A stretch of 64,000 bases of DNA from Eledone cirrhosa (GCA_964016885.1 OZ024740.1:181226001-181290000), one strand, 5' to 3'; shown: positions 1 to 42,826, counted from the stretch's first letter. Made by a program: numbers and translations. Notes: generated from the sequence alone by a model not told the origin.

Positions 1-57
1 ACCACAGTGACCCTGACCACCAGGGCAAGTAACCTCTCCCAGTTTACCACCCTTAAT

Positions 58-3000
58 TTACAGACACATACTCAGAGAAGGCCCATTCATTCGGGCCATA
101 CTTGCTTCTCTCACCCATCTTTCAACAAAATGCTGGGAAGAGAGCACTTCCCTCTCTACCCTGATTTTCCTTTTCAAATGAAATTTGAAAAAGTTAATCA
201 GGGCATCACTGAAGAGGTAAGTGCTCGTCTTCAGCCCTTTCAAACGTGTCCACCATACTATCTCTTTCGCCATGGCCACCAGACAGATAAAAACTGCCTG
301 CCCTTCCCGGCTAAAGGAAGAGGGCGGGGCAATCCTCACGATGGACTCAGCTGTTAGCTGGATCCGTCCTACACGTGACAGCAGGTGTTCGACATAAACC
401 CACAAGTCAGCAATGCTCGGACACTGGACGAGTGCGTGAAGGACGGTTTCGTCGCCCTGCGCGCATCTCGGACATGCCCGGCTGACGGCACCTCCATGCC
501 TGTAGAGTTTATCCCGAACTGGCAAAGCTCCCCGGTAGCACTGCCAGGCCAGGGATTTCTGGAAGTTGTCCATAGGCCCCGGCCCGAAAGTCGTTCCGAA
601 GAGATTGGCTAGTTGATTTTCGTCGACGCCTAGAGTTTCTCCAAGTACGTCGTCGCTCTTCCCCTCCACTAATCCCCTATAGAACGCCGAGGTGGAGTTT
701 CCACTGATCACATTGCCCGATTGGTCGAGGGCTTTGAGCGCCTGAATACATTCCAGTCTCCAAGCGCTCCCTCTCCGTCTTCGCTTGACCCAGGACTGCA
801 GCTCCGTCAAGGAAACGAGCTGGGGAAAAACGTGTCCAGCAAACGGCGACCACACCTGGTCACCGTCGAGGAAGAGGTGGAGATGCCATAACCTGAGCGC
901 GTGCCTGCGCATCATCAGCCACGGCATGCCCAGCCCTCCACGTAGCGGGTGTTGACAGCAGATGGACCGCCTGAGCATCGGAGCGCGTCCTTTCCACAAG
1001 AAGCGAAAGAGCAAACGCTCCAGCGCAGTCAGGCGGGGCTTAGGACAAGGTACGACAGTCAGGCGGTAGTAGATGACGAACGCGATGTACGCATTCGCCA
1101 CCTCCGCTCGACCTTTCAGGGATAGCTTCCTCTCGGCCCATTTCTGGGTGAGAGAAGCCACCCTACTCGTCACCTCGTCCCAGTTATTGTCCGTCTGGAG
1201 ATTTGGACCGAACCAGACCCCTAGCAATTTAACCGGTCCGTCCGTCCAGCGCCCGACGACGCTGTTGGACGGCTTGGACCTGCCTCTCCAGGTGCCGAGC
1301 TGCAGGCCCACTGACTTTTCCTGGTTGATCATTGCTCCTGTCACGGCTTCGTATTCTCTTAGTGTTGTGCCGATCGGCTCGATATGTTTGGCGTTCGACA
1401 CCGCTACGGTGACATCGTCGGCATATGCTGACACGGATCTTCCGCATCCTAGTTCGCGCGGGACCCCATTCAACGTCTCCAGTTTGTGCAGTAATGGCTC
1501 GAGAGTCAATACGTACAATAGGGACGAGAGGGGACATCCTTGGCGGACCGAGCGCATGATGTTGAACGGTTCCGAAAGGTGTCCGTTCACTCTCACTACA
1601 GAGCAGATGTCGCTGTGCATGGCAGCGATCCAGCCTCTGAAGACGGGTCCAAAGCCAGCCGCCCTCAGGACTGCCGCTAGGTAACGATGGTCGACCCTAT
1701 CGAAGGCTTTCGACTGATCTAAATTGATCAAGGACCCACCCGTGCCAGGTTCCCTAGCTACCCTCTCTGCGATGTATCGCATGAGGTGGAGTTTGTCGTG
1801 GATGGATCTGTCGGGAATGGCGCATGTCTGTGCCTCTACCACCAGACCACCAACGACAAGCGCCAACCTCTTTGCTAGCACCTTGTCCAAAATCTTGAAC
1901 TCTGTATTTAGCAGAGTTATGGGCCTAAAATTATCTATGTTATCCCCCTTGTTCGGATCCGTTCTCACCAGCGCCACCGCTCCTCGGCTCACAGAGCTGG
2001 GAATTCTCCCGTTCTGTTGCCAGTTGCAGTAGACGTCCGCCAAGAGGCCTCCGAACAAGTCTGGCATTTGTACGTAAAGTTCATAGGGCAGACCATCCAA
2101 ACCAGGCGATTTACCCCTTGTGCAGCCAGTCATTGCCTCCCGTACTTCAGCGGTTGTTATCGGCTTTTCGCAACACACCGCCTCAGTGGCCGAAAGCCGC
2201 GGCAGTCCGTCGAGGTAGACACTAAAGTCCATCACTCGATCCGGCCCGCCACTACCCCCGAACAATTGAGCGAAGTGTCGCTGAAAAGCTTCACACATTT
2301 GCGCGGGATCGAGTAGCATGCGCCCGTCGTGGTCCACCAAAGACGGATCGTGGCTTTATTGCCAAGACGCGCCTCCGCCACTCGGGCCCATTGAACGGCT
2401 TTCGTCCCCTCGTGTCTGAGAGCACGCACCCTAGCTCTGACAACGCAGCTTTCGTGCTTTGCATTGAAGAATTGGTCAAGGGCCAATTTCGCCGCAAGTA
2501 CGTCGGTCGCGATGCCTTTGCTAAGCGCCTCTCTAATTTTCTAACTAATTCTCCCTCTGCTCTATTTTTCTCTATTGCTAAAGTCTTACTAAACCTAATG
2601 GACTCTATTCTAATTGCTCTTTTCAGAGCAAACCACCACTTGTTGTTGACGATGTCCCCCGTCAACGCCCGCTGAACTAGATAATCCGGTCTCTGTAGAC
2701 CTTGCGCGCTGGTAAGGACGCGTTGAGCTTCCAGTAGCCGGGTCCTCGTCTATGAAGACTATCTAAGTCAAGCACACGGATCACGAATTTGTGGTCCGTG
2801 TAGCTGACTATCTTGAATTGTTGCCAGCCTATGCTAGATCTATCTATTTCCATACAAAATAATCTATCTAGATATCATCTGAATGACCCGATACGATTTG
2901 TCCAAGTCCACATTGGTACATTCGGGAAATCCAATCGGTACCTGTCAGACAATTCAAAACGCCTGAGCAGGTTGGTGAGACTCTTGTACCCTCCTCACCT

Positions 3001-3469
3001 ATCCACTAATCCCACACAGTCCCAGCGTGCATCTAAGATTCCGTTCCAGTCCTCCACTAGCACTAAAGAGCCGGACGTTCCAAGAAAGGTCTCCAGACGC
3101 CGGAAGGCCGCCCTGCTCCTATCGGAGCATAGACTACCACTAACCTGAAAGCTTGCCCGTCTCCGCTGGTCACGTCTAGCACCAACAACTTACCTTCTGG
3201 GTCCAGGAAGATGGCCCGTATGGCAAGATCCAAACTTCTCCGAAAAAGGACAGCAAATTCCCCCCCCCCCTTCATACCGGACGGCTGGGAGATGCGTACA
3301 CAACGTAGCCGCCGAAAGCGGGTGCCAAGGCCCGTGCTTCGGAGATTCTGGTCTCGCTGATGGCCACTACATGTATGTTTAGTGACCTGAGGTCGTTGAG
3401 CAGGTGGCCCTGCTTCCATGACGACCCCAAGCCACGCGCATTTATGCTGCCTATTCTGAGTGAGGTCAT
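58..3469 (-). pseudogene. Tx1-like ORF2 (APE endonuclease, reverse transcriptase, zf-RVT-like C-terminus), frameshifted
   Basis: RIGSINARGL and VAISET (APE); FRPITLLN, LDQSKAFDRVDH, SVRQGCPLS, AYADD (RT); CPRC..ETVLHALVQC. Split over ORFs 3272-3469, 3063-3503, 2291-2665 and 58-2340. Confidence 0.92.
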
Positions 3470-3503
3470 GTTGAATTGGAGTGGAAAAGATGGGAAAGAC
3501 CAC

Positions 3504-42064: not shown

Positions 42065-42079
42065 AATAATGATAATAAT

Positions 42080-42456
42080 GATTTCATTTATTAGCGACAA
42101 GGGCCGACATGTAGGGGACAATACAAAGACAGGGACAGTGGGGGTTTACAATAAGGTCGAGTAAAAGTGCACAATGGCAAGACTAATTTAACAATGAAAA
42201 TATAAAAATATAAAATAAACTATGCATAAATATAACAAAATAAATTCCCCGATAGGGGGTGGACGACCCTGGGGTGATTCGGGTACCCCACCAATCCTGA
42301 ACCACCCTGCGCTTCTAGGGCACCCAGGAGAGCACCCCTCTCCTCAAGTTAGCCAGCCTATAGGCACATGGTCAGAGTAGGCCCATTCATACGAGCCATT
42401 CTCGCCACATTCACCCACCTTTTAGCAAATGTACTGGGGGGGGGGGGGCAGCACTT
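42080..42456 (-). mobile_element. 3' fragment of a second, diverged Tx1-like family (copy D)
   Basis: Encodes ..RWVNVARMARMNGPTLTMCL*. Different 3'UTR ending CCCTTGTCGCTAATAAATGAAATC-(ATT)n. Confidence 0.8.
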
Positions 42457-42489
42457 ATAATAATAATAATAATAATAGTAATAATAATA

Positions 42490-42826
42490 ATGAAAAATCC
42501 CTTCATAGTACCTTCTTTGAGAAAACTGAATTCAGAGATCCACAGACATGGAACTGGTTGAAAAGAGGCTACCTTAAAAAGGCTACAGAAGGAATGTTAA
42601 TGGCTGCCCAAGAGCAGGCCCTCAAAACGAACTGGTTGAAACACCATATTTACAAGGAGGAGGCTGGAGACTTTCCAGTTAACTAACATCAATGACTGAG
42701 ATTCAAAGAACAATAATAATAATAATAATAATAATAATAATAATAATAATAATAATAATAATAATAATAATAATAATAATAATAATAATAATAATACGAA
42801 GAAGAAGAAGAAAAAGAAGAAGAAGA
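42490..42826 (+). mobile_element. Internally deleted R4/Dong-like fragment (42490-42711) followed by (AAT)n-(AAG)n
   Basis: EKSLHSTFFEKTEFRDPQTW..IYKEEA fused to the last ~45 bp of the 3'UTR. Confidence 0.88.

Follow-up and report, generated by a model that had tools for sequence, protein, structure and literature searches.

Described target-specific LINEs and how the Eledone locus compares

Dong, a long interspersed nuclear element (LINE), has been described from insects, molluscs, cnidarians and an ostracod, where its target is (TAA)n (PMC3812793, PMC7998251), and it bears a hepatitis delta virus (HDV)-like self-cleaving ribozyme at its 5' end (PMC3774820). For the R4/Dong clade, a diverged Myb/SANT-like N-terminal domain without zinc fingers has been described, which was found by profile search (PMC7998251). 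Clades with a restriction-like endonuclease (RLE) are portrayed as mostly target-specific, with microsatellite-specific families in HERO and Togen (PMC4640811), and (TC)n, (TTC)n, (TTCC)n and (TTTC)n are given as microsatellite targets in the Tx1 clade (PMC4494074). TRAS and SART insert in opposite directions into the Bombyx telomeric repeat (TTAGG)n, where each nicks a different strand and arrays accumulate (PMC7265360). Here we analyzed a 64,000-nt stretch of the 3.0-Gb genome of Eledone cirrhosa (positions 181226001-181290000 of contig OZ024740.1, hereafter the window), in which copies of a Tx1-like LINE with an apurinic/apyrimidinic endonuclease (APE), family A, and of a Dong-like RLE LINE, family B, are interleaved in (AAT)n.

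We consider it very likely that these two unrelated families both insert specifically into (AAT)n/(ATT)n in fixed opposite orientations, probably through nicking and priming on opposite strands. Both keep to the repeat, and their orientation relative to it is strictly opposite at both element ends, in the clusters of the window as well as in unselected genome samples. B always has (AAT)n after its sense 3' end, and also before its 5' end, whether the copy is full-length or truncated; the sense 3' end of A runs into (ATT)n, and the repeat also abuts its 5' end, where it reads (AAT)n on the strand opposite to A. A sequence-only reading of the window had proposed the core of this picture, namely one repeat, fixed opposite orientation, retention of repeat to either side of each insertion and hence growth of the arrays by accretion, and it held up when flanks and orientations were examined genome-wide.

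Dong (R4 clade; Bombyx mori, Anopheles, Biomphalaria, ostracod, cnidarians) resembles B in having an open reading frame (ORF) with reverse transcriptase (RT), CCHC and PD-(D/E)xK regions and without APE, and in its 3' end, which runs into a (TAA)n-class microsatellite. B differs in that a single genome contains about 9,600 of its exact 3' termini together with many open frames of 1141 aa, and the HDV-like ribozyme described for Dong gave no Rfam match at the B 5' end. Kibi, Koshi and the crocodilian Tx1 elements have in common with A the combination of APE, RT and a C-terminal zinc-binding region, the placement in the L1/Tx1 group, and orientation-specific insertion into a simple repeat in which the element ends, rather than in poly(A). 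The target of A is (ATT)n, however, and its sister family at 58-66% amino acid identity adjoins (GATA)n. TRAS and SART offer the precedent of two LINE families that occupy one simple repeat in opposite directions and form arrays, but both are R1-clade APE elements of telomeric repeats, whereas A and B bring an APE and an RLE element together in an interstitial, genome-wide trinucleotide microsatellite.

R1 (APE-type) and R2 (RLE-type) LINEs have one multicopy target in common, 28S rDNA. They use distinct fixed sites in the gene and their insertions make no new targets; A and B, in contrast, would use the two strands of one short repeat and generate new targets by inserting. In the literature searched, which did not extend to Repbase Reports or to the supplementary figures of PMC4494074, we found neither a (TAA)n/(ATT)n-specific Tx1-clade element nor mixed Dong/Tx1 arrays. 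Dong in (TAA)n, microsatellite-specific Tx1 elements and pairs in opposite orientation each have published precedent, and it is the pairing of A with B that is new. The case is notable for its scale and for two nuclease classes on one trinucleotide repeat, not for a new kind of mechanism. It provides a natural high-copy system in which RLE and APE appear to have converged on two strands of the same repeat, and its hundreds of open-frame copies of each family, the (GATA)n-associated sister family and a short interspersed nuclear element (SINE) with a possible minimal nick site (ATAAT) would allow the determinants of APE and RLE target specificity to be compared side by side.

Two LINE families in two clusters

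The window was mapped by self-BLAST, Pfam, a read-out of every junction and a tandem-repeat scan. Self-BLAST yielded two repeat families, A and B, restricted to two G+C-rich blocks that rise up to 40-55% from a background of about 31-37%. Cluster 1 occupies positions 1-16654 and reaches 232 nt beyond the left end of the window, and cluster 2 spans 32316-42826. Their features are as follows, with the underlying evidence in brackets:

1-5700, minus: A1, Tx1-like APE LINE with full-length 5' end at 5700 (self-BLAST, Pfam, junctions)
5701-5740, plus: (AAT)13 spacer between the A1 and B1 5' ends, head-to-head (repeat scan, junctions)
5741-5881, plus: B1, 141-nt 3' fragment of the Dong-like RLE LINE (self-BLAST, junctions)
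5882-5932, plus: AATAACAAC(AAT)n, tail common to B1 and A2, tail-to-tail (repeat scan, junctions)
5933-11941, minus: A2, Tx1-like LINE (self-BLAST, Pfam)
11942-11965, plus: (AAT)8 spacer (repeat scan, junctions)
11966-13222, plus: B2, 5'-truncated B copy (self-BLAST, junctions)
13223-13297, plus: (AAT)25, tail of B2 and at once 5' flank of B3 (repeat scan, junctions)
13298-16496, plus: B3, 3.2-kb B copy with open frame (ORF, Pfam, translation, genome copies)
16497-16654, plus: (AAT)38(AAG)14, right edge of cluster 1, with unique DNA beyond it (repeat scan)
32316-32591, plus: (TAG)24 ... (AGA)56, left edge of cluster 2 (repeat scan, junctions)
32592-33021, plus: B4, internal B piece (self-BLAST, junctions)
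33026-34395, plus: B5, 3' 1.37 kb of B (self-BLAST, junctions)
34396-34452, plus: (AAT)19, tail of B5 (repeat scan)
34453-34682, plus: B6, 230-nt 3' fragment of B (self-BLAST, junctions)
34683-34727, plus: AAT-type tract common to B6 and A3, tail-to-tail (repeat scan, junctions)
34728-40622, minus: A3, 5.9-kb Tx1-like LINE (ORF, self-BLAST, Pfam)
40623-40673, plus: (AAT)17 spacer between the A3 and B7 5' ends, head-to-head (repeat scan, junctions)
40674-41600, plus: B7, 0.93-kb 3' part of B (self-BLAST, junctions)
41601-41621, plus: (AAT)7, tail of B7 (repeat scan, junctions)
41622-42064, plus: B8, B copy with internal deletion, join near 41942 (self-BLAST, junctions)
42065-42079, plus: short AAT-type tract, B8/A4 tail-to-tail (junctions)
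42080-42456, minus: A4, diverged 3' fragment of an A-like LINE (junctions; similar 3' ends in loci L105 and L126)
42457-42491, plus: AAT-type spacer (repeat scan, junctions)
42492-42707, plus: B9, B fragment with internal deletion (self-BLAST, junctions)
42708-42826, plus: AAC(AAT)28 then (GAA)9, right edge of cluster 2 (repeat scan, junctions)

The clusters thus hold four copies of A, all on the minus strand, and nine fragments of B, all on the plus strand. AAT-type repeat on the plus strand is the separator everywhere except at the B4/B5 join, so that the nine B fragments correspond to eight AAT-delimited units. Most of the sequence-only map agreed with this layout. Its four APE-type insertions on the minus strand are A1-A4 by self-BLAST, Pfam and junctions, and the three tail-to-tail joins that it had located at 5887/5933, 34688/34728 and 42064/42080 were recovered exactly in the junction read-out as B1/A2, B6/A3 and B8/A4. 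As it had also stated, no element body is interrupted by another insertion, and the remainder of the window contains no nucleotide match to A or B. The eight RLE-type insertions that it had counted were right in strand and as AAT-delimited units, but the fragments number nine; its two clusters stood as an overall map, with the left bound of cluster 1 moved outwards by the 232 nt and the start of cluster 2 moved to 32316; and its claim that neighbours are separated only by (AAT)n failed at B4/B5.

All 11 pure runs of at least five AAT units in the window lie within the clusters. Four of four cluster edges in the window are microsatellites, with the compound types (AAT)38(AAG)14, (TAG)24..(AGA)56 and (AAT)28(GAA)9, and the outer sides of both clusters are anchored in unique DNA. 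A1 ends 182 nt outside the window on its left side, and this 3' end is separated from unique DNA by (AAT)16. Orientation is uniform by family in 13/13 window elements, which, together with the absence of any genome match to the reversed-pattern terminus controls (see below), argues that chance is not the explanation.

The copies in the window differ in their truncation points, and their pairwise identities in self-BLAST range from 90 to 99.5%, which argues for independent copies. It also bears on the idea that there were only a few insertions and that the arrays then arose mainly from tandem or segmental duplication and from AAT tracts crossing over unequally, which we regard as unlikely. Such a history would fit the alignment of 5741-9680 with 34542-38476 as one block (B fragment, AAT, 3' part of A) at 94.7% identity, the same orientation of B neighbours within 50 kb in 19/22 pairs, and the proneness of tandem repeats to unequal exchange. 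However, the B fragments at these two similar joins measure 141 and 230 nt and their AAT tracts differ too, no two B copies of the window have the same truncation point or deletion, in addition to the spread in identity, and the same junction types recur at thousands of unrelated loci. Unequal exchange may still contribute to the arrays. That the arrays are assembly concatenations of high-copy repeats appears extremely improbable: both families are indeed high-copy, AAT tracts are longer than short reads and k-mers, and the window has a 200-N gap elsewhere (59236-59435), but neighbouring copies are distinct in their sequence, in where they are truncated and in the length of their tracts, both clusters are held by unique DNA on their outer sides, and the same architecture is present at many loci.

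In family B, Pfam detected RVT_1 and no APE. The 1041-aa frame of B3 (13297-16422) comprises RT, CCHC and RLE. In its translation, a CCHC motif is followed at the C-terminus by RPDLVVVD...IVDV...K, of the PD..D..K type, and this C-terminus aligns in HMMER to the RLE region of the R2 chain 9nl3_A; solved R2 proteins are also the best PDB matches of B (3.4e-30). A single ORF with RT, then CCHC, then a PD-(D/E)xK endonuclease, without APE, is the architecture of R4/Dong-type elements, and B likewise has the Dong-type target, (TAA)n in fixed orientation at both junctions, with 9/9 window fragments on the AAT strand. By these features, B would work like Dong; the name R4/Dong is taken from architecture, target and relatives rather than from a phylogeny deciding between HERO and R4/Dong. 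The best 120 homologues of B are nearly all unnamed, and the three named ones give no family. With the N-terminal 140 aa of B3 as query, 150 matches of 5326 candidates in the genome were scored, and 86 of these 150 best-scoring matches lie in a 1141-aa open frame, with 99% identity over the 140-aa query (hand count). B3 is short of full length: genome copies with the 1141-aa frame have a longer 5' region, reaching about 1.28 kb further 5', which identifies B3 as 5'-truncated.

The 1.2-kb 5' untranslated region (UTR) of B, seen in loci L093-L100, contains a stretch of ~190 nt that is repeated at ~320-nt spacing and whose copy number varies between copies, with three in L098. No ribozyme was detected by Rfam, either across the whole window at gathering thresholds or in the full-length B 5' end at E<=1, weak matches to CrcZ and NPPA-AS1_2 being repeat artefacts, and the fold of the B 5' end was not better than those of shuffles. 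HDV-like ribozymes often escape such Rfam models. The first 150 residues of a 1141-aa-type copy gave no Pfam match to a Myb/SANT domain even at E<=1; a W..Y..W-spaced stretch was seen by eye in the N-terminus. At the 5' end of B2 we found a perfect 34-bp tandem duplication (11966-12033), and at the B4/B5 join (33021/33026) a truncated copy has an internal B piece attached directly to its 5' end, with no repeat between them. B4 and B5 are probably one chimeric insertion with a template jump, and this join and the B2 duplication look like template-switch products of 5' junction formation.

Across A1, A2 and A3, Pfam identified Exo_endo_phos, RVT_1 and zf-RVT, and the ORF1 of A, which lies upstream of ORF2, has one CCHC knuckle. 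Matches of ORF1 to MBD were weak, below threshold, and were disregarded. A3 has ORF1 with the knuckle, APE, RT and zf-RVT, its ORF2 being split into several frames. An ORF2 in which an N-terminal APE is combined with RT and, at the C-terminus, a zinc-binding region is Tx1-type architecture, and target-specific insertion into a repeat, a mark of the Tx1 clade, is found in A with 30/30 5' ends and 12/13 3' ends in (AAT)n. In the PDB search, the best solved relative was human L1 ORF2p (RT 2.9e-41), compared with 4e-19 for R2, and the endonuclease matched the L1 endonuclease (1.9e-06). The nearest named Atlas cluster is 'Transposon TX1 149 kDa' at 0.97, an automatic name, and one homologue (P0134) is called TX1 by its source. 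Solved relatives and cluster name are leads, not a tree, and suggest that A is closer to L1/Tx1 than to the R1/Jockey/CR1 groups. A would accordingly be expected to behave as a microsatellite-specific Tx1 element, a name derived from the nearest named cluster and L1 ORF2p and not from phylogeny. In the genome, 43/150 scored APE matches lie in a 1152-aa open ORF2 frame (hand count), and both families keep many open-frame copies.

The 3' 3.7 kb of A2, which contain the ORF2 part, are 94-95% identical to A1 and A3. Its 5' 2.2 kb (9680-11941, minus strand; 5' UTR and ORF1) gave no nucleotide match to A1 and A3 (3551-5700 and 38476-40622), and its ORF1 is a diverged homologue with a degraded knuckle (CFRCGSKTHLRAFY). 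A2's own 5' terminus (..CCATGGCATTC) was found again at loci L033, L065 and L123. A2 thus represents a mosaic subfamily, its 5' part belonging to another subfamily than that of A1 and A3.

Genome-wide flanks, tract census and co-clustering

Element ends were sampled as the first loci listed, within the first 25-36 Mb of one contig, from copies with the exact terminus pattern. The B 3' 22-mer has 9620 genome matches, the A 3' 20-mer 16504 and the A full-length 5' 22-mer 2286; each reversed control has 0. AAT-type repeat follows the B 3' end in 30/30 of the first loci, and in 8/30 it leads directly into an A-like 3' end in opposite orientation. The B 5' survey covered 29 copies with upstream sequence, of which 20 reach beyond 1.5 kb and 8 of these were extended. 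Truncated copies, with the 5' end within 1.5 kb, have (AAT)n directly upstream in 7/7 cases, and in one of the 29 (L089) a second B piece adjoins with no repeat in between. Of the extended copies, which are full-length or nearly so, 7/8 had a 5' region that could be placed, and (AAT)n precedes it in 7/7; the reference copy of the survey, L063, and L096 gave no resolved 5' junction. Four copies have the identical 5' terminus AGGGAAGAAGACGCAC..., about 1.28 kb upstream of the B3 start.

The A 3' 20-mer covers three related LINE families that are told apart by two bases. Among the first 30 loci, 13 are AA-type, the type of the window, 7 GG-type and 10 AG-type, with ORF2 C-terminal amino acid identities to A1 of mostly 84-96% (one copy 72%), 75-80% and 58-66%, respectively. 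At least four AAT units stand before 12/13 AA-type 3' ends; of the 13 left neighbours, 5 are B tails, 2 are A 5' ends and 6 are other DNA. With 30/30 B ends and 12/13 A 3' ends, the orientation first noted in the window, Dong-like 3' ends into AAT and Tx1-like ones into ATT, is confirmed in these samples. GG-type ends lie in long AAT in 3/7, and AG-type ends adjoin (GATA)n in 5/10 and long (AAT)n in 0/10 (L035, L039, L041, L044, L045, L050, L052, L055, L058 and L060). In the AG-type sister LINE, one lineage seems to have changed the microsatellite with which it is associated while keeping the 3'-terminal motif. On the other side of the element, 30/30 sampled A 5' termini directly abut (AAT)n, and in 29 the tract has four or more pure units. 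The next element beyond that tract is another A, entered at its 3' end, in 10 cases, B in at least 6 and a SINE in 1.

A tRNA-derived SINE measures roughly 190 nt, has a 3' end resembling that of A (loci L143-L162) and yields 63,723 exact 24-mer matches in the genome. It is inserted after ...ATAAT in 19/20 loci, several with 10-16-bp target-site duplications, and mostly outside microsatellites. Further copies were seen in L014, L101 and L125 and, at a distance of about 330-365 nt, to the left of the window (L091). The SINE may be mobilised by an A-type LINE, and its sites may show the minimal nick site (ATAAT).

The 5' junctions bear on the view that neither family has target specificity and that (AAT)n is a self-made tail like the poly(A) of L1, with adjacency due to chance or regional preference. 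The B tail begins with an element-encoded AATAACAAY motif and the SINE resembling A inserts at short ATAAT sites, as this view would have it. Yet repeat abuts the 5' junctions too (A 30/30, resolved B 14/14), where a non-specific element would show unique DNA or a target-site duplication, as the SINE does, and the four of four cluster edges formed by microsatellite are equally at odds with it. We consider it very unlikely, and specific insertion of both families into the repeat remains our preferred interpretation.

V(AAT)10 has 18285 genome matches, and 24/30 of the first long (AAT)n tracts touch an A/B-type element: 12 start as a B tail and 8 at an A 5' end, while in the other 4 the element lies to the right and shows either an A-like 3' end or the 5' end of B. 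The joins in these 30 tracts are B|A tail-to-tail in 3 cases (and 2 with a SINE), A|B head-to-head in 4, B|B in 5 and A|A in 1. Judging from the 24/30 sampled, most long (AAT)n tracts of the genome touch A or B, so that microsatellite markers and repeat-number variation are here largely a matter of retrotransposon biology. The census also bears on the origin of microsatellites.

Co-clustering was evaluated in the first 34.2 Mb of the contig with 50 B, 66 AA/GG-type and 34 AG-type ends and 500 random placements. An AA/GG-type A end was found within 150 bp of 13/50 B ends, tail-to-tail in 13/13, at a random mean of 0.02, so that the co-clustering suspected from the window extends to the wider sample. 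Within 10 kb, 26/50 B ends had an A end, 24 of them antiparallel (random mean 1.9); for the AG-type LINE as internal control, the count was 3/50 B ends (random mean 0.9).

Co-clustering could also mean that one element parasitises the other, with A targeting the 3' end or tail of B instead of the microsatellite. Xenopus Tx1 inserts into the Tx1D transposon, all three visible A 3' ends of the window (A2, A3 and A4) stand tail-to-tail with a B 3' end, and the 13/50 B ends with an A end within 150 bp fit as well. However, the A1 3' end follows (AAT)16 that is flanked by unique DNA, and the 13 window-type A 3' ends include, besides 5 after a B tail, 2 after an A 5' end and 5 after (AAT)n beside other DNA. 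Furthermore, 10/30 A 5' ends lead into another A, and 12/30 long AAT tracts begin as B tails, so that plain (AAT)n specificity already predicts frequent B neighbours. Parasitism of B by A is therefore highly improbable in our judgement, compared with specificity of A for the repeat itself.

Insertion mechanism and other features of the window

Under target-primed reverse transcription, the RLE of B would nick the ATT strand, whose 3'-OH would anneal to an (AAU)n RNA tail, and the APE of A would nick the AAT strand after ...AAT, with that end annealing to an (AUU)n RNA tail. The junctions of A and of the SINE both read ...AAT and then the element, which suggests a nick after AAT. Each insertion would split one tract in two and add a fresh tail. 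As repeat is kept on both sides and a tail is added, targets would multiply while the locus fills, which would lead to interleaved arrays and to the dominance of element-attached tracts. The resulting arrays would combine four kinds of join, namely B|A tail-to-tail, A|B head-to-head, B|B and A|A, with no element interrupting another; arrays with all four are common. Antisense RNA from read-through at tail-to-tail joins is possible, but this is speculation. More tentatively still, and with considerable doubt, one may imagine that the LINEs form a self-expanding shared niche in which each uses the fresh (AAT)n tails of the other on the opposite strand, that they made most of the long (AAT)n of the 3-Gb genome, and that the convergently transcribed arrays are sources of double-stranded RNA or piRNA that regulate both.

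Several points weigh against our overall interpretation. Sampling exact patterns on one contig leaves old or diverged copies under-sampled. Among the 13 AA-type A 3' ends, that of L051 is preceded by a single AAT unit, and GG-type ends stand at one or two AAT units in 4/7. Two of the 26 nearby B/A pairs are not antiparallel; in one of these, at L030, two microsatellites that run in opposite directions lie side by side. Orientation alone does not tell a first- from a second-strand cleavage preference, and we infer the strand nicked by each nuclease. Unequal exchange between AAT tracts may further shape the arrays. Finally, the tRNA-derived SINE with an A-like 3' end inserts at bare ...ATAAT, with target-site duplications, which suggests that the APE may recognise a short motif only; the restriction of the LINE to long tracts may then come from tail annealing or from another domain.

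Locus L030 also contains, at about 1270-1340, a diverged A4/GG-like 3' end that reads, in the sense direction, into a short degenerate repeat whose phase is AAT and not ATT. Among old copies, the orientation rule may thus have an exception here.

Outside the clusters, the 15.7-kb stretch between them was considered as an element inserted in (AAG)n and rejected, having no long ORF and no nucleotide match to A or B. A 105-aa stretch within it (30633-30992, minus strand) has distant RT similarity at 28.6% identity. Positions 53851-59235 form an inverted pair of 1.8-kb arms that are 98% identical and abut the 200-N gap at 59236-59435; their frames gave a weak match to RVT_1 and a very weak GIY-YIG-like (MUG113) match, and the pair is possibly a Penelope-like element in head-to-head arrangement. 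At 62033-64000 on the minus strand, a 655-aa frame that is open at the window end matches RVT_1 strongly (2.5e-30) and is only 23% identical to A; it represents another retroelement, in a G+C-rich block. Between these two, a (TATATG)n-like array (59463-60141) adjoins a 1.4-kb (TA)n-rich tract (60560-61956), and di- to tetranucleotide repeats are highly abundant throughout the window.

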